Shown piece after piece: positions 5,622 to 53,455 of a DNA stretch of 64,000 nt; position 1 is the first letter of the stretch; each line of letters begins with the position of its first letter. Location of the stretch: assembly GCA_036261885.1 (NCBI GenBank), contig DATAJY010000009.1:52814-116813 (forward strand), written 5' to 3'. The notes below the pieces were generated by a model, which saw only the letters and a list, made by a program, of their open reading frames with translations, did no database searches and had not been told where the DNA came from. A program made the position numbers and the translations under genes. Source of the stretch: Thermoanaerobaculia bacterium (lineage in GTDB: Bacteria; Acidobacteriota; Thermoanaerobaculia; Gp7-AA8).

Positions 5622-6269
5622 TCACGCCGGTGGGGCGCGTGGGGCGAGTTGCAGCAGTGCGGGTGCGAACGGAATCGCGCGAATGAGCGGCACGTCGATG
5701 CGCACCGCAATCCAACCGCGCCACGCGCGCTCGTGTCGCGCGGCGTCGAGCGCCACACGGGAATCGACGTCGGTGATCGCATCGAGCACGACCAGCGATC
5801 CGATTCGTTCGCGGCAACGCGCGAGCGTCAGTTCCGAAAGCAACTCGCGATCGCACGTGGAGAACGCAATGAAGTTGATGCCGCCATCCCGCGCCGGGGC
5901 AACGACCGTGGCACCCGCCGCGACCGACTGCAGGACGGAAGCGAGACACGCCGGCGGTGGTGCATCGATCGCCGCAAGTACGATCGCATCGAAACGCGAA
6001 AGCGCATCGGACGACGCATTGGCCACTCGCTCTCCGAACGACGCGCCGCGCTGCGGCAGCCATTCGCGCGAGACCGACGGTGCGATGGCCGCGAGTGCGG
6101 CGAGGTCCGCTTCTTCGCAGGCGATGAGCGGCGTGGCCCCGGCCCTTGAAGCGGACTCGAGCCAGGCGGCGATTACACGACGAAACAGCGGCGCAGCGAA
6201 GCGCATCCCTTTCGCGGCTGCTTCCCGTTCCGGGCTGCGCGCGAACAGAACCACCGCCGTTCGTTTCAT
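5622..6269 (-). CDS. DUF2064-type transferase (rSAM/selenodomain-associated transferase 1 family)
   Basis: start at MKRTAVVLFARSPEREAAAKG..., the characteristic DUF2064 N-terminus; the ORF-track extension upstream of this Met is probably not coding. Confidence 0.65.
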   Translation of the reverse strand: MKRTAVVLFARSPEREAAAKGMRFAAPLFRRVIAAWLESASRAGATPLIACEEADLAALAAIAPSVSREWLPQRGASFGERVANASSDALSRFDAIVLAAIDAPPPACLASVLQSVAAGATVVAPARDGGINFIAFSTCDRELLSELTLARCRERIGSLVVLDAITDVDSRVALDAARHERAWRGWIAVRIDVPLIRAIPFAPALLQLAPRAPPA

Positions 6270-6293
6270 CAACGGCGCGAAGTGTACCTGCTT

Positions 6294-6307
6294 ATGACAT
6301 CGGTCAT
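6294..6307. promoter_or_regulatory. perfect palindrome ATGAC-N4-GTCAT in the divergent promoter region between the DUF2064/rSAM operon and qNOR
   Basis: seen in sequence: atgacatcggtcat; 59 nt upstream of the norB ATG and 25 nt upstream of the divergent gene. Confidence 0.3.
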
Positions 6308-6365
6308 GTGCGACGAGGCGGTGACTTCCTACCGTGGCTGCAGGGAAAAAAAGGAAGGGAGCATC

Positions 6366-8627
6366 ATGCAATACCGCAAGCTCTGGATCACACTCGGCAT
6401 CGTCGTTCTGGTGTCCTTCACGATTCTCGGCATCGCCGGCTACAAAGGCATCCAGTCGGCGCCGCCCATCCCGTCGAAAGTCGTGACCACCGACGGTGCC
6501 GTGCTCTTCACCGGGGAAGAAATCCGCAACGGACAGAACGTCTGGCAGTCTCTCGGCGGCCAGGAAATCGGCTCGATCTGGGGGCACGGCGCCTACGTCG
6601 CTCCCGACTGGACCGCGGATTACCTCCATCGCGAGCTCACGCTCATCCTCGATCGCTGGGGCTACGCCACGGCCGGCAGCGAGCAGCAGGCCGCGTTGCG
6701 CCAGCGTCTGCAGACGATGATGCGCACCAACACCTACAACCCGGCCACCGGCGTCGTCACGATCACGAAAGAACGGCAGCAGGCCTTCGAAACACTAGCC
6801 GCGCATTACGCGAGCGTCTTCGGCGCCGGCCGTCCCGAATACGCGATCGCGCGCGGCACGCTCACCGACGCGACGAAATCGCGCGAGATGGTGGCGTTCT
6901 TTTTCTGGACCGCCTGGTCGAGCGCCACGAACCGCCCCGGCAAGAGCATCACCTACACGCAGAACTGGCCGCACGAACCGCTCATCGATCTGAAGCCGAC
7001 CACGGCCGCGGTGATGTGGTCGATGATCAGCGTCATTCTTCTGATCGGCGGCATCGGCGCGCTGGTCTGGTTCTACGTCGCACACCGCGAGCCGCATAAG
7101 AACGACGACGAAGACGAGCTGCCGATCACCGATCCGCTCCTCGGCGCGAATCCGACGCCGTCCCAGAAGGCGACCATCAAATTCTTCCTCACTGCCGCGG
7201 CATTGTGGGTGTTGCAGATCGCGCTCGGCGCGCTCGTCGCGCATTACGGTGTCGAAGGGGCGTCGTTCTTCGGCATCCGCATCGATCACATCCTTCCGTA
7301 CAACATCGTCCGGACATGGCATCTGCAGCTCGGCATCTTCTGGATCGCCACGACGTGGCTCGCCACCGGTCTCTACATCGTTCCGGCGCTGGCCGGCAAA
7401 GAGCCGAAAGGGCAGCGCTTCGCGATCAACATGCTCTACGGCGCGGTCGTCTTCGTCGTGCTCGGCTCGATGACCGGCGAATGGCTCGGCATCAAACAGA
7501 AACTCGGCAACCTCTGGTTCTGGTTCGGCTCGCAGGGGTACGAGTACGTCGACCTCGGACGCGTGTGGCAGATCCTGCTCTTCACGGGACTCTGCTTCTG
7601 GCTCTGGCTGATGTGGCGCGGCGTCAAACCGGCGCTCGATCGCAAAGACTCCTCCCGCTCGCTGCTGATGCTCTTCACCGTCTCCGCGATCGCCATTCCG
7701 ATGTTTTATGGCGCCGGCCTGATGTACGGACAGCGCTCGCATGTCGCCGTCGCTGAATACTGGCGCTGGTGGGTCGTCCATCTCTGGGTCGAAGGGTTCT
7801 TCGAAGTCTTCGCCACGGTGGTGATCGCGTTCCTCTTCACGCGTCTGCGGCTGCTGCGAATCGAAGCGGCCACGAAGGCCGTGCTCTTCTCGACGATCAT
7901 CTTCCTCGGCGGCGGCATCATCGGCACGTTCCATCACCTCTACTTCACCGGCATGCCCGCCTCGATCCTGGCCCTCGGCTCGGTGTTCAGTGCACTGGAA
8001 ATCGTGCCGCTCTGTCTGGTCGGCTTCGAAGCATGGGAAAACCTCAAGCTCTCGAAGGGAACGCAGCGAGCGACGTGGGTTCCGGCCTATCGCTGGCCGA
8101 TCTACTTCTTCGTCGCGGTCGCGTTCTGGAACCTCGTCGGCGCCGGCGTGTTCGGCTTCCTCATCAATCCGCCGATCGCGCTTTATTACATGCAGGGTCT
8201 CAATCTCACGCCGGTGCACGGACACACCGCCCTGTTCGGCGTGTACGGCATGCTCGGGCTCGGTCTCACGCTCTTCTGCCTGCGCGCGCTTCGTCCGGGG
8301 TTGCAGTGGAAAGAGAAAACCGTCGGTGTCGCCTTCTGGCTGATCAACGGCGGTCTGGTGCTGATGGTCGCGCTGTCGATGTTGCCGGTCGGCATCCTGC
8401 AGGCGAATGCCGCGATCAGCGAGGGAGTCTGGTTCGCGCGCTCTGCCGAGTTTCTGCAGACGCCGCTGATGCAGAACCTCCGCTGGCTGCGCGCGATCGG
8501 CGATACCTGCTTCGCCATCGGCGCGCTGATGCTGGCGTGGTTCATGGTCGGCTTGCTCACCGGCCACTCCTACGACGTCACCACGGAAACGGAACCGGCA
8601 CCGAAAGGCGGCGTGCCGCAATACTGA
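6366..8627 (+). CDS. norB: quinol-dependent nitric oxide reductase, single-subunit qNOR (NorB/NorZ family)
   Basis: 753 aa; N-terminal TM plus periplasmic extension, then a 12-TM haem-copper-oxidase-like core with conserved His ligands (HLWVEGFFEVF, TFHHLYF, HGHTALFGVYGM); RBS ggaagggag before the ATG. Confidence 0.9.
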   Translation: MQYRKLWITLGIVVLVSFTILGIAGYKGIQSAPPIPSKVVTTDGAVLFTGEEIRNGQNVWQSLGGQEIGSIWGHGAYVAPDWTADYLHRELTLILDRWGYATAGSEQQAALRQRLQTMMRTNTYNPATGVVTITKERQQAFETLAAHYASVFGAGRPEYAIARGTLTDATKSREMVAFFFWTAWSSATNRPGKSITYTQNWPHEPLIDLKPTTAAVMWSMISVILLIGGIGALVWFYVAHREPHKNDDEDELPITDPLLGANPTPSQKATIKFFLTAAALWVLQIALGALVAHYGVEGASFFGIRIDHILPYNIVRTWHLQLGIFWIATTWLATGLYIVPALAGKEPKGQRFAINMLYGAVVFVVLGSMTGEWLGIKQKLGNLWFWFGSQGYEYVDLGRVWQILLFTGLCFWLWLMWRGVKPALDRKDSSRSLLMLFTVSAIAIPMFYGAGLMYGQRSHVAVAEYWRWWVVHLWVEGFFEVFATVVIAFLFTRLRLLRIEAATKAVLFSTIIFLGGGIIGTFHHLYFTGMPASILALGSVFSALEIVPLCLVGFEAWENLKLSKGTQRATWVPAYRWPIYFFVAVAFWNLVGAGVFGFLINPPIALYYMQGLNLTPVHGHTALFGVYGMLGLGLTLFCLRALRPGLQWKEKTVGVAFWLINGGLVLMVALSMLPVGILQANAAISEGVWFARSAEFLQTPLMQNLRWLRAIGDTCFAIGALMLAWFMVGLLTGHSYDVTTETEPAPKGGVPQY

Positions 8628-21113: not shown

Positions 21114-21956
21114 ATGGATGACTCGTATCGCGGCTGGCGCCGCCCCGGCCCTCTCCCTCCCGGCGGCATCGAAGCGGAGGAAGGCGAAACGCTCGATTTT
21201 CTCTGCGGCTACTACCGCATCTTTCAGTACGCGAAAGGGCATCGCTACTCCACCGACGACGTGCTCACCGCGTGGTACGGCAGCATCAGCGCGCCGCGCG
21301 TCGATCGCGCCGCCGACCTCGGCTCGGGCATCGGCTCGGTCGCGCTCATCACCGCCTGGCGTCTCCCCGGCGCGTCGTTCACGACCGTCGAAGCGCAGGA
21401 AATCTCGTTGCGACTCGCGAAGAAGAGCGTGCGCTACAACGGACTGGAAGCGCGATTCGCGCAGCACCATGGGGACCTGCGCACGTTCGTCTTCGACGGC
21501 ACCTACGATCTCGTCACCGGCTCCCCGCCGTACTGGCCCGAGGGTACGGCGTCGGAAGCGCGACACCCGCAGGCCGTCCCCGCGCGCATCGAGATTCGCG
21601 GCAGCGTGTTCGATTACGCGGCGGCGGCCTCGCGGATTCTCGCGCCGGGCGGAGTGTTCGCGTTCGTCTTTCCGACGGTGCAGATGCCGCGCGTGTTCGA
21701 AGCGCTCTCCGCTGCTTCGCTGAAGCTCGTGCGCCGGAGAGATGTCGTGTTCAAGGATGGCGAGCCGCCGTTGATCACGCTGTTCGCCGCCTGTCGTTCC
21801 ACCGATCTCCCCGATTCGTATGCGGAGTTCGTGGAAGCGCCGCTGGTGATCCGTCGCAGGGACGGCGGTGTGCCCGATGAGTACTCCGCCATCCGGCTGA
21901 GCTTCGGGTTTCCACCCGGCAATGTGCCGGCGGAAACCCGCGGTCCCGGCCGCTGA
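21114..21956 (+). CDS. class I SAM-dependent methyltransferase, N6-adenine (YfiC/TrmN6-like)
   Basis: SAM motif DLGSGIGSVAL and catalytic (D/N/S)PPY-type motif GSPPYW. Confidence 0.7.
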   Translation: MDDSYRGWRRPGPLPPGGIEAEEGETLDFLCGYYRIFQYAKGHRYSTDDVLTAWYGSISAPRVDRAADLGSGIGSVALITAWRLPGASFTTVEAQEISLRLAKKSVRYNGLEARFAQHHGDLRTFVFDGTYDLVTGSPPYWPEGTASEARHPQAVPARIEIRGSVFDYAAAASRILAPGGVFAFVFPTVQMPRVFEALSAASLKLVRRRDVVFKDGEPPLITLFAACRSTDLPDSYAEFVEAPLVIRRRDGGVPDEYSAIRLSFGFPPGNVPAETRGPGR

Positions 21957-21988
21957 GCGCTGCGTGAATAAACACGAGGCGCATGCAG

Positions 21989-22413
21989 TGTGTCATCCCG
22001 AGCGGAGCGCGCAGCGCGGAGTCGAGGGACCCCCTGCGGATGCACGAGGGTCGCTGCGTATGCGGGGGATCCCTCCACTCGCTGCGCTCGGTCGGGATGA
22101 CACGAAAAGGGAGCGTGCAGTGTGTCATCCCGAGCGCAGCGCGCAGCGCGGAGTCGAGGGACCTCCTGCGGATGCACGAGGGTCGCTGCGTAGGCGGGGG
22201 ATCCCTCCACTCGCTGCGCTCGGTCGGGATGACACGAAGTTGCGTCCACGCAACAGCGCGGCGGAGCGCTGCGTGGATAAACACGAGGCGCATGCAGCGT
22301 GTCATCCCGAGCGCAGCGCGCAGCGCGGAGTCGAGGGACCCCCTGCGGCTGCACGAGGGTCGCTGCGTAGACGGGGGATCCCTCCACTCGCTGCGCTCGG
22401 TCGGGATGTCACT
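21989..22413. repeat. three tandem ~115-bp hairpin repeat units (REP/MITE-like, family 1) in a convergent intergenic region
   Basis: each unit = arm gtgtcatcccgagcggagcgcgcagcgcggagtcgagggacccc + ~30-nt loop + inverted arm gggggatccctccactcgctgcgctcggtcgggatgacac; units >90% identical; the last unit overlaps the stop of the downstream convergent gene. Confidence 0.85.
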
Positions 22414-26548: not shown

Positions 26549-26715
26549 TGAGGCGGTAGTCGGTTGTCGGGAGTCGGTTGTCGGGAGCTCCCGGCAACCG
26601 TGCTGCCGACGACCGACACGCCGATCGCCGTCCTCACGACCTCTCTCGCCCCGAGTCTGGAGTCGAGAGCATCGTTCTCCCGACAACCGACAACCGATCA
26701 CCGACCACCGCCCTA
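26548..26715. repeat. GTCGG-type palindromic repeat (family 2), copy A
   Basis: begins tgaggcggtagtcggttgtcgggagtcggttgtcgggag ... and ends with the inverted ctcccgacaaccgacaaccga; starts at the M16B stop codon. Confidence 0.8.
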
Positions 26716-36645: not shown

Positions 36646-36775
36646 GCGGGTCGTTGTCGGTTGTCGGGAGTCGGTTGTCGGGAGGCCACCGCCACCACCA
36701 CGTTTCCAGCGGAGCGGTTCTCCCGACTCCCGACTACTGACTACCGACTACCGACTTCCCGACTACACGCCCGCT
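36646..36775. repeat. GTCGG-type palindromic repeat (family 2), copy B
   Basis: gtcgttgtcggttgtcgggagtcggttgtcgggag ... ctcccgactcccgactactgactaccgactaccga. Confidence 0.8.
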
Positions 36776-42478: not shown

Positions 42479-44416
42479 ATGCAGCAATTTCGATACGACA
42501 TCCGCAACGTTGCCATCATCGCCCACGTCGACCACGGAAAGACTACGCTCGTCGATGCGCTCCTCAAACAGGCCGGCGCCATCCGCGCGCACCAGCAGGT
42601 CGACGAGCGCGTCATGGATTCGAACGATCTCGAAAAAGAACGCGGGATCACGATTCTGGCGAAGAACACGTCGATCCGTTACTTCGTCGATCAGCCGGAC
42701 GCCCTCGGCCATCCGGTTCATCACGAGACGACGCACACGGCGAGCGGCCACGACCTCCCCGCGGAATTCGTTCACCCCACCGAGGTGAAGATCAACATCG
42801 TCGACACCCCGGGCCACGCCGATTTCGGTGGTGAAGTCGAGCGCGTCCTCTCGATGGTCGACGGCGTCATCCTCCTCGTCGATGCCGCCGAAGGCCCGAT
42901 GCCGCAGACGCGTTTCGTGTTGCGCAAAGCCCTCGGACTCGGCCTGCTGCCGATCGTCGTCATCAACAAGATCGATCGCAGCGACGCGCGCGCAAACGAA
43001 GTCGTCAACGAAGTGTTCGACCTCATGGTCGAGCTCGGAGCCACCGACGAACAGCTCGACTTCCCGATCCTCTATGCGATCGGCCGTCAGGGCATCGTCC
43101 GCCACGAGCTCACCGACACCACCGAAGACTGCCGTCCGCTGTTCGACGCGATCCTCAAGCGCATCCCGCCGCCTCCCGGCTACGCGGACGCGCCGCTGCA
43201 GCTGCTCGTCAGCGCCATCGACTACAACGACTACGTCGGCCGTCTCGGCGTCGGCCGCATCCAGCGCGGCCGCATTCGCCAGAACTCCGACGTCATCCTC
43301 ATTCTCCGCGACGGCACGCACAAGAAAGGCCGCGTCACCAAGCTGCAGGCCTTCGAAGGGCTGACGCGCAAGGACGTGGACGAAGCGTCGGCGGGTGAGA
43401 TCGTCACCGTGGCCGGCTTCGCCGACGTCGAGATCGGCGAGACCTTCACCGCTGCTGATGCGCCGGAACGCCTCGAGCCGATCGCCATCGACGAGCCGAC
43501 CGTCTCGATGTTCTGGATGGTCAACGACTCGCCGTTCGCCGGCACCGAAGGCAAATACGTCACCTCGCGCAACATCAAAGACCGCCTCGACCGCGAACTG
43601 CGCAAAGACGTCGCGCTGCGCGTGCGCGAGACCGGTCAGGCCGACCGCTTCGAAGTGGCCGGCCGCGGCGAGCTGCACCTCTCGATCCTCGCGGAGAACA
43701 TGCGTCGCGAAGGCTACGAGTTCGCGCTCTCGCGCCCGCAGGTCATCCTCAAGGAGATCGACGGCAAGACGATGGAGCCGTATGAAGCACTCGTCGTCGA
43801 CGTCGAAGAAGCGCACGTCGGCCCGATCATGGAAAAGCTGCAGCAGCGCCGCGCCGAGATGACCGACATGGTCAACCCCGGCACCGGCCGCGTGCGCATC
43901 GAGTTCAAGATCCCCACCCGCGGCCTCTTCGGCATCCGCACCGAATTCCTCAGTGAAACGCGCGGTACCGGACTCCTGTACCACACGTTTCTGCAGTACG
44001 GTCCGTACCGCGGCGAGCTGACCTCGCGCAACCGCGGCGCGCTCGTGGCGAAGGAAGCGGGCGATACGACCGCCTACGCGATCGAGCCGCTGCAGGAACG
44101 CTCCACGCTCTTCCTCGGGCCAGGCAACAAGGTCTACGGCGGCCAGGTCGTCGGCGAAAACTCGCGCGACAACGACATGGTCGTGCAGGTCTGCCGCGCC
44201 AAGCACCTCACCAACATGCGCGCCTCCGGCTCCGACATCGCCGTGAAGCTCACCCCCCCACGCCTCATGACCCTCGAACAATGCCTCGACTGGATCGAAG
44301 ACGACGAGCTCGTGGAAGTCACCCCCGAGTCGATCCGCATCCGCAAACAGATCCTCGACCACTCCCAACGCGAAGTGGCCGCGAAAAAGGCGAAGAAGGC
44401 CGAAGCGGCGGGGTGA
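42479..44416 (+). CDS. typA: ribosome-associated GTPase BipA/TypA, with a ~32-aa insertion in the G domain
   Basis: G1 [11 protein letters not shown]3 DTPGHADF, G4 NKID; BipA-specific C-terminal domain; extra segment [38 protein letters not shown] where canonical BipA has ~6 residues. Confidence 0.9.
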
Positions 44417-44427
44417 GTGGTGGGTGG

Positions 44428-45160
44428 GTTGAATTGAAAATTGAAAATTGAAAATTGAAATCACTCGTCGCCAGCGTGACTCGTCGCGCTGGCGATTTTG
44501 CTTTTGAGGGACAACGCGTCACTCGTGCATCCGCCCGCGTGTCATCCCGAGCGGAGCGCGTAGCGCGGAGTCGAAGGGACCCCCTTCCCGACAACGCGGT
44601 ACTCGTGCTTTCGCAGGGGATCCCTCCACTCGCTCCGCTCGGTCGGGATGACACATGCGCGCCCACGTGTCATCCCGAGCGGAGCGCGCAGCGCGGAGTC
44701 GAGGGACCCCCTTCCGACAACGCGGTACTCGTGCATTCGCGGGGGATCCCTCCACTCGCTCCGCTCGGTCGGGATGACACAGGCGCCCCGCGTGTCATCC
44801 CGAGCGGAGCGCGTAGCGCGGAGTCAGGGACCCCCTTCCGACAACGCGTCACTCGTGCTTCCGCGGGGGATCCCTCCACTCGCTCCGCTCGGTCGGGATG
44901 ACACAGGCGCGCTTCCGACAACGCGTCACTCGTGCATCCGCCCGCGTGTCATCCCGAGCGGAGCGCGCAGCGCGGAGTCGAAGGGATCCCCTTCCGACAA
45001 CGCGGTACTCGTGCATCAGCAGGGGATCCCTCCACTCGCTGCGCTCGGTCGGGATGACACATGCGCGCTCGCGTGTCATCCCGAGCGGAGCGCGTAGCGC
45101 GGAGTCGAAGGGCATCGCGCTGGCGAAACCTGATTTCAATTTTCAATTTTCAATTTCCCG
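44428..45160. repeat. ~730-bp composite repeat element: (TTGAAAA)n terminal inverted repeats enclosing about six tandem family-1 hairpin units
   Basis: left end gaattgaaaattgaaaattgaaaattgaaatc, right end gatttcaattttcaattttcaatttc (exact reverse complement); interior alternates the gtgtcatcccgagcggagcg.. arm, a ~30-nt cttccgacaacgcggtactcgtgc core and the inverted arm. Confidence 0.85.
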
Positions 45161-45172
45161 CCGCCTCAATCC

Positions 45173-47800
<2,628 letters not shown>

Positions 47801-52330: not shown

Positions 52331-53326
52331 ATGAAAACCTTCTTCAGGGTCGTGGGCATTGCAGTGCTCGCGATCGTGGCCCTTGCTGCGATCGGAGTTT
52401 CGTACCTCTCGCTGCGCAAACCGGCGCAGCGTCCGGCCTCGGCCGAAAAAATCGAAGCAACACCGGAGCGCGTCGCGCGCGGCCGGTACCTCGTCTCGCA
52501 CGTCACGCTCTGCGTCGATTGCCATTCCGAGCGGACGCTCGCCTACGGACTGCCGGTGAAACCGGGACGCGAAGGCGTCGGCGGATTCGTCTGGGATCCG
52601 AAGAGCAAGTTCCCCGGCACGCTCGCGGCCGCGAACCTCACGCCGGATCCCGACACCGGGCTCGGCAAATGGAGCGACGGCGAGATCCTGCGCGCCATCC
52701 GCGAAGGCGTCGACCGCGAAGGCAACGCACTCTTCCCGATCATGCCTTACGGTCACTACCGCGCCATGTCCGACGACGACGCGAAAGCGGTGGTCGCCTA
52801 TCTCCGCACGCTCCGGCCGCAGCGTTACGAGAAACCGAAGAAGAGCCTCGACGTGCCGCTGAACTTCGTCGAAAAATTCATCCCGCAGCCGCTCAGCGCG
52901 CCGGTCCCGCCGGTCGATCCGAGCGATCACCTCGCCTACGGCAAATACCTCACCACCATCGCCGCCTGCGGCGAATGCCACACACCGAAAGACGACAAAG
53001 GAAACGCCCTTCCGGGAATGGAGTTCGCCGGCGGCTTCGAGATGCACACGCCGTACTTCCGCGTCGTCACCGCGAACATCACCCCGCATCCCGCGACCTA
53101 CATCGGCCGCGCCTCCCGCGAGGAGTTCATCGCCCGCTTCAAGTCATTCGAGCAGATGAACGCCAGCAACGCCCCGCCAGCCGAGCCCGGAAAAAACACG
53201 CTCATGCCCTGGCTCTCCTACGCCGGCATGTCCCCCGACGACCTCGGCGCCATCTACGATTACCTGAAAACCATCAAGCCGATCGAACACCAGGTGAATT
53301 CATTTCCGGATGCGATGAGGCGGTAG
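52331..53326 (+). CDS. dihaem c-type cytochrome, membrane-anchored
   Basis: N-terminal TM; two CxxCH motifs (CVDCH, CGECH), each in a class-I cytochrome c-like domain. Confidence 0.75.
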   Translation: MKTFFRVVGIAVLAIVALAAIGVSYLSLRKPAQRPASAEKIEATPERVARGRYLVSHVTLCVDCHSERTLAYGLPVKPGREGVGGFVWDPKSKFPGTLAAANLTPDPDTGLGKWSDGEILRAIREGVDREGNALFPIMPYGHYRAMSDDDAKAVVAYLRTLRPQRYEKPKKSLDVPLNFVEKFIPQPLSAPVPPVDPSDHLAYGKYLTTIAACGECHTPKDDKGNALPGMEFAGGFEMHTPYFRVVTANITPHPATYIGRASREEFIARFKSFEQMNASNAPPAEPGKNTLMPWLSYAGMSPDDLGAIYDYLKTIKPIEHQVNSFPDAMRR

Positions 53327-53455
53327 TCGGTAGTCCGGAGTCGGGTGTCGGGAGCACGGCCACCCGAAAACTCGTGGGCGGGTGGTGGCCTCCCGACTCC
53401 CGACTCCCGACAACCGACAACCGACTCCCGAACTCTCCGTCCCTCCAAACCGATT
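53320..53455. repeat. GTCGG-type palindromic repeat (family 2), copy C; its first bases supply the last codons and stop of the cytochrome gene
   Basis: gatgaggcggtagtcggtagtccggagtcgggtgtcgggag ... ctcccgactcccgactcccgacaaccgacaaccga; atg agg cgg tag is read in frame as M-R-R-stop. Confidence 0.8.

Follow-up and report, generated by a model that had tools for sequence, protein, structure and literature searches.

Several kinds of intergenic palindromic repeat have been described in bacteria, and two of them bear on the conspicuous ~730-bp block analysed here: the CGTC-tagged superfamily of repetitive extragenic palindromic (REP) sequences and the paired inverted heptamer tracts. The block lies at 44428-45160 of a 64-kb stretch of DNA (the window, whose coordinates are used throughout) from what is described as a soil bacterium, placed by its TypA homologs in Thermoanaerobaculia, Acidobacteriota, where those homologs are 98-87% identical; an exact-protein look-up gave no record for the TypA of the window itself. 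It fills the gap between the stop codon of typA and that of a convergent Ser/Thr protein kinase gene. L numbers denote loci fetched from other genomes and metagenomes. We think it likely that two unrelated repeat systems are nested here, a REP cluster lying within a resident palindromic hairpin.

The bacterial interspersed mosaic elements (BIMEs) of E. coli and the neisserial intergenic mosaic elements (NIMEs) of Neisseria are mosaic intergenic arrays of REPs. In the CGTC-tagged superfamily the tag is "changed to TGTC" in many repeats, most repeats form tag-outward (head-to-head) dimers 20-100 bp apart, and clusters are reiterated along with flanking DNA (Di Nocera et al. 2013, PMC3733652). 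The published families have a perfect 8-9-bp stem, a 4-5-nt loop and a short unpaired C-rich tail with the consensus CCA; they are unusually alike across phyla, have no dedicated transposase, and include, by that paper's assignment, dRS3 of Neisseria and RPE-4 and RPE-6 of Rickettsia (PMC3733652). Halothiobacillus, Thermomicrobium and Anabaena have dimers of this kind that lie inside target palindromes (PMC3733652). GTAG-tagged REP doublets forming hairpins (REPINs) are instead mobilised by REP-associated tyrosine transposases (RAYTs) (Bertels & Rainey 2011, PMC3116915), the RAYT gene being single-copy and flanked by REPs of the same type. Among the long simple-sequence repeats of bacteria, over-representation is greatest for heptamers; paired inverted GGGAATC heptamers number 70-75 pairs per genome in Xanthomonas (Rehm et al. 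2015, PMC4692102), and the paired heptanucleotides of Geobacter metallireducens were termed putative 'global regulator sites' (Aklujkar et al. 2009, PMC2700814), with insertion sequences at a fixed distance from the related class 1 paired sites (PMC2700814). Paired heptamer tracts are a known class, and an unexplained one.

The typA–kinase gap and its counterpart in L164

L164 was found by scanning metagenomes for the tract junction, and it is collinear with the window on both sides of the gap (89% nucleotide identity in typA, 86% in the kinase gene). Its 84-nt typA–kinase gap reads (TTGAAAA)4-TCA-44 nt-TGA-(TTTCAAT)4, with the left heptamer arm at 6190-6222, the right one at 6267-6300, and no REP or array inside the gap. 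It folds as one ~100-nt hairpin (-42 kcal/mol, z = -7), and joining the window flanks at the direct repeat that borders the array reconstructs an equivalent hairpin (-55.8 kcal/mol). Judged by its sequence, the L164 gap is an empty site. This and the reconstructed hairpin argue that the outer tracts, which the original prediction took for the terminal inverted repeats of a mobile element, are the arms of a resident hairpin, and that the array is an insertion into its centre. Copies lacking the array had been suggested as something to look for, and L164 supplies one, with the same arms around its 44-nt centre.

The outer tracts had been described as a 30-nt run matched downstream by its exact reverse complement. 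The inverted pair is real, but it is exact over only 22-25 nt; when extended, the complementarity covers 42 nt at 88% (44438-44479 against 45115-45156). Chance expectation for such TTGAAAA-type tracts is none, and the 64-kb window contains no further one. The left heptamer arm falls within the typA alignment of the window and L164, whereas other intergenic stretches are unalignable at such divergence, so that the arms would be under constraint or in concerted evolution. The direct repeat seen just inside both ends is present and 12 nt long. Its right copy would be the 3' half of the ancestral central stem, since it is complementary to 44468-44479. The two kinds of repeat also stand apart elsewhere in the window: three heptamer hairpins (H1-H3) enclose no array, and a second array at 21990-22412 has no heptamer tracts. 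The empty site, this independence of the components and the lack of a duplication outside the tracts together argue that REPs inserted into a palindrome, the reverse of the nesting first proposed.

The resident hairpin has a GC-rich stem-loop at its centre, its 5' arm being rich in A and its 3' arm in U, a layout that suggests a bidirectional terminator or 3'-end stabiliser for both converging genes. Bidirectional intrinsic terminators in convergent gaps likewise have a GC hairpin set between A-rich and U-rich tracts; here, both of these outer tracts are heptamer microsatellites, which pair with each other and lengthen the stem to ~45 bp. The sequence pattern of an intrinsic terminator is seen both in the typA 3' hairpin and in the L164 gap hairpin. 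That the gap probably acts as a terminator, as was suggested for it, is plausible, a putative terminator of hairpin and T tract lying 3' of typA (44467-44505). The 5' half of this hairpin has a second, distant pairing partner in the right copy of the direct repeat, and read on the minus strand the hairpin is followed by the U-rich heptamer arm. This hairpin and T tract are the probable 3' end of the typA transcript, and typA would have retained a compact terminator at the left junction. A transcript of the kinase gene would need to enter or cross ~650 nt of REP hairpins. E. coli REPs have been reported to block exonucleases or to pause RNA polymerase, and by analogy the hairpins here may act as 3'-end exonuclease barriers or polymerase pause sites. 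Termination is not thereby established for the whole heptamer-hairpin class: the GC-rich hairpins H1-H3 are without any U tract.

Both flanking genes were identified by Pfam, in agreement with the original prediction, which had placed the element in the convergent gap between typA and a kinase gene. The left heptamer tract begins 13 nt from the typA stop codon. Orthologs of the kinase are present in L117, L118 and L164. A third heptamer tract overlaps the kinase stop codon and encodes a short C-terminal extension, the protein ending …GRGIGD* in the window versus …GEG* in L164, from which the extension is absent. RNA folding, proposed as a check, predicts a structure for the whole gap region far stronger than that of shuffled sequences (z = -13.8).

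Table 1. Positions of the genes, tracts, hairpins and REP units in the window.
Feature	Position	Strand	Basis or remark
typA/bipA, translational GTPase gene	42479..44416	+	Pfam GTP_EFTU, EFG_C, BipA_C
Left arm of resident gap hairpin, tgaa(TTGAAAA)3TTGAAATCA	44430..44463	+	Tandem Repeats Finder (TRF): period 7, 4.1 copies, 100%; inverted repeats I1/I3; kept in L164
Intrinsic-terminator-like hairpin, GTCGCCAGCGTGA-CTCG-TCGCGCTGGCGAT, then TTTTGCTTTT	44467..44505	+	Terminator scan; sequence
Left copy of 12-nt direct repeat, TCGCGCTGGCGA	44484..44495	+	Sequence; reconstruction
Orphan core, GACAACGCGTCACTCGTGCATCCGC plus ccgc, no arm before it; start of 407-nt block	44505..44538	+	97% identity to 44917-44995 (family D2)
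REP dimer unit 1: left arm, 29-30-nt core, right arm; TGTC tags outward	44539..44654	.	Folds as long hairpin
REP dimer unit 2, 114 nt	44667..44780	.	DNA fold -37.5 kcal/mol, z = -4.8
REP dimer unit 3, 113 nt	44792..44904	.	
Second orphan core; start of partial second copy of 407-nt block	44912..44945	+	Family D2
REP dimer unit 4, 115 nt	44946..45060	.	~92% identity to unit 1 and its spacer; family D1
Truncated left REP arm, cut at ...GTCGAAGGGCA by right insert junction	45073..45114	+	Sequence
Right copy of 12-nt direct repeat, TCGCGCTGGCGA	45115..45126	+	Complementary to 44468-44479 (inverted repeat I1)
Right arm of resident gap hairpin, TGATTTCAA(TTTTCAA)2TTTC	45131..45157	+	TRF; inverted repeats; kept in L164
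Third heptamer tract, (CCTCAAT/CCCCAAT)n	45164..45186	+	TRF; gene-end comparison with L164
Ser/Thr protein kinase gene with PD40 beta-propeller repeats	45173..47800	-	Pfam Pkinase 7e-49, PD40
Second cluster, three 114-nt REP dimer units	21990..22412	.	Arms at least 97% identical to those of the typA–kinase array
Heptamer hairpin H1, (GGTWGTC/GGGAGTC)n ... (CTCCCGA/CAACCGA)n, no REP inside	26554..26710	.	6 nt past peptidase M16 stop
Heptamer hairpin H2, fills SH3/creatininase convergent gap (117 nt)	36646..36762	.	Absent from L118 gap
Heptamer hairpin H3, central GC hairpin (GGCCACCCG...GTGGGCGGGTGG)	53317..53431	.	Inverted heptamer tracts

TGTC-tagged REP dimers in the window and elsewhere

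The array interior comprises four complete hairpin units of 113-116 nt, with a period of 124-128 nt, together with one truncated left arm and two orphan cores. Each unit has a left arm of 45 nt, a core of 29-30 nt and a right arm of 40 nt, and spacers of 11-12 nt separate the units. The design of arm, core and inverted arm that was first read from the sequence therefore stands, but the count of about six units of ~110 bp does not. Each unit had also been expected to form a long hairpin, and the folds of units 1 and 2 bear this out (Table 1). The array as a whole amounts to 1.5 tandem copies of a 407-nt block, the copies being 92-97% identical (families D1 and D2). No promoter-like site was found, and spurious open reading frames (ORFs) spanning the arrays gave no Pfam match. 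Across the whole window there was no Rfam match at the gathering threshold, and at E <= 10 only sub-threshold matches to generic miRNA-like hairpins were returned.

The arms are widespread. Their 20-mer GTGTCATCCCGAGCGSAGCG occurs, as a lower bound, in more than 116 stretches of species-representative genomes; the matches listed fall in Acidobacteriota, Gemmatimonadota, Verrucomicrobiota and Alpha-, Beta- and Gammaproteobacteria, and also in Chloroflexota, Actinobacteriota, Bacteroidota and others. The usual form elsewhere is GTGTCATCCCGAGCGCAGCGAGGGAYC, a variable loop and the reverse complement, spanning 50-125 nt, and solo arms are also numerous. We counted 83 tag-outward arm pairs, mostly of that span, and the loops between the arms are unrelated from genome to genome. 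The canonical monomer is TGTC-ATCCC-GAGCGCAGCGA-GGGAT-C, which folds into 5 bp, a tandem G·A/A·G internal loop, 2 bp and a 3-nt loop (-3.5 kcal/mol). Its statistics were taken from 84 monomers left free by the search pattern. The tetranucleotide directly before the stem is TGTC in 53 of these and CGTC in seven; in the window, all 15 arms carry TGTC. The stem is ATCCC/GGGAT in 25 monomers, ATCCT/AGGAT in eight and ATTCC/GGAAT in three, and ACCCC/GGGGC also occurs. It opens with A-T and T-A pairs, at least four of its five positions are paired in 59 of the 84, and the pairing is kept by compensatory variants. The tail after the stem begins with C in most cases and continues as CTT, CTG, CTC or CCT, with CCA found only three times. 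One window arm of each dimer has an 11-nt insertion and the other a 4-nt insertion, so that only dimers fold well.

We conclude that the units are head-to-head dimers of a TGTC-tagged REP, a variant or member of the CGTC/TGTC superfamily that stands outside its four published families. The YGTC tag, the compensated stem led by A-T and T-A pairs and the tag-outward dimers with reiterated flanks place it there, and the reading of the units as REP-type hairpins in the original prediction is supported in this respect. The likeness covers the unpaired YGTC tag at one end, the A-T and T-A pairs followed by C/G pairs, the short loop, the duplication of clusters with their flanks, the similarity across phyla and the occasional position of dimers within target palindromes. 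As for an adjacent transposase, none was apparent among the ORFs inspected here without Pfam. By our own back-translation, the intragenic peptides VIPAKAGI and DPGLRRDD of the superfamily imply GTCATTCCCGCG...GGGAATC and GTCATCCCGG...CCGGGATC, which share the head of the monomer seen here. The differences are the stem, here 5 bp, tandem G·A/A·G and 2 bp with a 3-nt loop, the arm insertions of the window subfamily, and the range, since Acidobacteriota, Gemmatimonadota and Verrucomicrobiota are outside the five phyla reported for CGTC REPs (PMC3733652).

Resemblance to other REP systems is partial. A REPIN also joins two inverted REPs and a spacer into one hairpin (here 114 nt), and two loci of the window have near-identical arms. 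However, the tag here is TGTC or CGTC and not GTAG, the loops are not conserved between genomes, and the published CGTC families lack a dedicated transposase; no RAYT turned up, no search being aimed at Y1/HUH transposases among the window genes. BIMEs and NIMEs, as generally known, likewise alternate REPs with two kinds of conserved linker (here the 29-nt core and the 11-12-nt spacer), lie in 3' intergenic DNA and expand by local duplication. The array in the window is built from another REP family with much longer arms (40-45 nt), and there is no evidence in it for binding of integration host factor (IHF) or gyrase. BLAST of the canonical dimer against plasmids gave essentially no matches, so the family is chromosomal, and a literature search for the arm sequence as a string found no papers. 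The ORFs beside the two clusters of the window are typA, the kinase gene, a methyltransferase-domain ORF and a DUF1801 ORF. Widely spaced arm pairs (0.4-3.8 kb) were considered as autonomous elements and set aside: none of the largest ORFs between them looks like a transposase on inspection without Pfam, and one resembles NuoD.

Some arms in other genomes are lengthened by self-complementary insertions, such as CCTGCCTGCCGCAGGCAGG, that lie between CCCGAGCG and GAGGGAYC, as in L014, L041, L091 and L093 (Chthoniobacter, Chthoniobacterales) and in L020, L049, L078 and L085. The two arms of one dimer can differ in their insertions. These insertions suggest that the apical part of the monomer is a site of expansion.

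The second cluster of the window fills the gap in which the methyltransferase-domain ORF converges with the DUF1801 ORF. Its 29-nt core is an inverted relative of the core in the typA–kinase array, matching at 12 of 13 nt, a score equalled by 6 of 2000 shuffles. The cores are inverted between the clusters and the arms are not, the outcome expected from recombination between inverted arms. A 34-nt flank containing the stop region of the upstream gene (21956-21989) is duplicated at 22264-22298 along with the third unit. The last REP tag is mutated to GATGTCAC and overlaps the DUF1801 stop codon.

Heptamer-tract hairpins at gene ends

The resident hairpin of the typA–kinase gap has counterparts in the same window. 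Four pairs of close, opposite-strand, intergenic period-7 tracts occur there, making them paired inverted heptamer simple-sequence repeats. Three of the hairpins, H1-H3, form one family, (GGTWGTC/GGGAGTC)n ... (CTCCCGA/CWACCGA)n; each begins 3-7 nt past a stop codon and encloses a short centre and no REP units. H1 and H2 share an identical stretch of ~29 nt (GTCGGTTGTCGGGAGTCGGTTGTCGGGAG), and H1 and H3 an identical 18-nt junction (GATGAGGCGGTAGTCGGT). H2 supplies the stop codon of the creatininase gene. The orthologous SH3/creatininase gap of L118 is only 10 nt long (2043-2052), and the presence of H2 in the window and its absence there suggest that heptamer hairpins are gained or lost as whole units between related genomes. 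Of the 16 inverted tandem-tract pairs in ~955 kb of window and fetched loci, 13 are of period 7, with units specific to the locus. Four of these 13 pairs, in the window, L017, L026 and L071, enclose REP arms, and no two of the four have the same heptamer; this is suggestive of targeting, in a sample that was selected for REPs.

The Xanthomonas and Geobacter pairs agree with those seen here in having period-7 tracts, in two nearby copies on opposite strands of intergenic DNA, with the potential to form a stem-loop, and in occurring as several families per genome. The cyanobacterial short tandemly repeated repetitive (STRR) sequences and the TAACTGA heptamers of Beggiatoaceae can be grouped with this comparison. 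Here, by contrast, the units are TTGAAAA and GGNNGTC/CTCCCGA, and the tracts lie directly beside stop codons, with a GC hairpin between them. Neither PMC4692102 nor PMC2700814 describes a REP cluster inside such a pair.

Outside the window, REP arms or dimers lie between heptamer tracts in three other Acidobacteriota loci, at 6739-7079 of L017 (AAGCAGA), 2796-3050 of L026 (GGATTTG) and 3251-3372 of L071 (GTCAGCC). Hairpins of (TTGAAAA)n and (TTTTCAA)n are found at several loci of one soil metagenome (L141, L156, L163, L164), with junctions that are partly alike, TCA-nnC-ATCGCGAG. Hairpins of (TTGAAAA)n, a short loop and (TTTTCAA)n also occur in unrelated organisms of ~40% GC, the low-GC loci being L130, L147, L159, L160 and L168 (human-gut and other metagenomes) and L131, L132, L140, L143, L148 and L149. 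The TTGAAAA palindrome seems to arise repeatedly or to be widely spread. We also considered that heptamer tracts serve to supply stop codons in all frames; this is true for TTGAAAA and GGTAGTC and fails for AAGCAGA, GGATTTG and others, and it was rejected as a general rule. A 10-nt match (TCCCGACAAC) between the unit core and the H1/H3 tracts was discarded because its length is about that expected by chance.

Alternative readings, proposed history and other relatives

The original prediction read the whole block as a composite miniature inverted-repeat transposable element (MITE), a non-autonomous transposon that has the heptamer tracts as its terminal inverted repeats, has captured or amplified REP hairpins and moves as a unit. 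The ends are indeed near-perfect inverted repeats, and the partly alike junctions of the TTGAAAA hairpins in one soil metagenome would fit dispersal of such an element. Nevertheless, L164 keeps the supposed terminal repeats at the same site with no array between them. Target-site duplications, which had been proposed as a check, are absent outside the tracts, where the flanks gtgggtgggt and ccgccgcc are unrelated; the sole direct repeat lies inside the tracts and flanks the array. The window and the public metagenome contigs yielded no second copy of the composite, arrays and tracts occur apart from each other in the window, and other Acidobacteriota have locus-specific inverted heptamer pairs with or without REP arms between them. 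We regard a MITE as very improbable. A reading that shares the nested arrangement makes the heptamer hairpin itself a small mobile or copy-dispersed element with its own terminator, one copy of which received the REP cluster. The identities among H1, H2 and H3, the absence of H2 from the orthologous L118 gap and the presence of the TTGAAAA family at four or more loci of one metagenome speak for it; yet the hairpins lack a target-site duplication, common ends that can be defined and an associated enzyme, their units vary by locus in other genomes in a way that suggests local growth by slippage, and the recurrence of TTGAAAA in unrelated low-GC organisms suggests convergence. On balance this is unlikely, though less so than a MITE. 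It is, in turn, hard to credit the array as a functional structured RNA, either tandem small RNA genes or a cis-regulatory 3' untranslated region under selection at the RNA level. The very strong predicted folding of the gap and the compensatory changes in the monomer stem are what such selection would leave. The loops between arms are unrelated across genomes, however, the core is inverted between the two clusters and the arms are not, the elements are found in both orientations and also as single arms, and neither a promoter-like site nor an Rfam match beyond generic hairpin noise was found; we give this reading as little weight as the MITE.

Several observations weigh against a REP cluster nested in a resident hairpin, or against the details of that account. 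The hairpin centres of the window and L164 share no sequence, which leaves the insertion point not mappable base by base, and loss of the array in L164 instead of its gain in the window could formally have produced the same pair of sites. The right end of the insert cuts an arm. The 12-nt repeat could be a target-site duplication or a partial duplication, or could have come from repair of a staggered break where a palindrome was cleaved; to our knowledge, REP and IS200-type elements do not make 12-bp duplications. As to the units, single arms of the window do not fold alone, and the canonical stem falls short of the perfect 8-9-bp stem and 4-5-nt loop of the published families. The enrichment of REPs in heptamer hairpins is a matter of few cases, from a sample chosen for REPs.

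With the nested arrangement as the favoured reading, the history of the gap is probably as follows. A ~100-nt hairpin, one member of a class of inverted heptamer-tract hairpins common in the host genome and in other Acidobacteriota, would have filled the whole typA–kinase gap before the array arrived. A REP cluster would then have entered the hairpin apex, where it is now flanked by the 12-nt direct repeat. The array would have grown and decayed locally, at least one deletion making the orphan core, which is a core fused to a spacer end and for that reason points to a deletion. Tandem duplication of the 407-nt block would have followed, and the second copy would have been truncated. Most probably the REP units are selfish or neutral DNA that a convergent gap can tolerate, and the region as a whole appears to be fairly ordinary bacterial junk or regulatory DNA rather than a new mobile element. 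A broader proposal, which we find doubtful and offer only as speculation, is that heptamer hairpins are a widespread gene-end class of Acidobacteriota and beyond, with arms in concerted evolution and coexisting families, and that in extruded form they are preferred landing sites for TGTC/CGTC REPs, which would insert at the apex with a 12-nt duplication. If this were true, the filled and empty pair would be a natural experiment on the insertion of orphan REPs.

With the nested arrangement, the conspicuous 730-bp repeat block is accounted for and no new mobile element is needed. The arrangement also carries a caution for annotation, in that microsatellite-like "terminal inverted repeats" can be the arms of a resident terminator hairpin. 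The range of the CGTC/TGTC REP superfamily is extended to Thermoanaerobaculia and other soil phyla, and one 20-mer is common to very distant bacteria although no dedicated transposase is known. The window and L164 form a matched filled and empty pair for a REP cluster in a palindrome, which may help to reveal how REPs move. Paired heptamers have been seen in Xanthomonas and Geobacter and never explained; their position here at gene ends makes a role in termination or transcript stability testable.

Other relatives differ 3' of typA. In L118 (GCA_040960215.1; TypA identity 93%) the typA–kinase gap at 6930-7254 has a different architecture of like kind, inverted tandem tracts of ~15-22 nt (GTTTTCCGCCCGCCC...) flanking a (CATCGTT/CATCGCT)n tract. 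L117 has two extra genes and plain hairpins downstream of typA. Synteny is broken 3' of typA there and in L119, L122, L123 and L172-L174, and these relatives are uninformative on the gap. In two independent soil assemblies (L124, L125) the contigs end ~28 nt past the typA stop codon, which is consistent with unresolved repeats at that position. L173 (GCA_046765895.1) contains two pseudo-copies of the last ~230 nt of typA downstream of the gene (6095-6322 and 6789-7025); a TIR-domain gene follows typA, and a further small ORF lies between the pseudo-copies. By their sequence, these pseudo-copies look like the signature of integrative elements that use the typA 3' end as an attachment site, which would explain why the downstream gene order differs in almost every relative.

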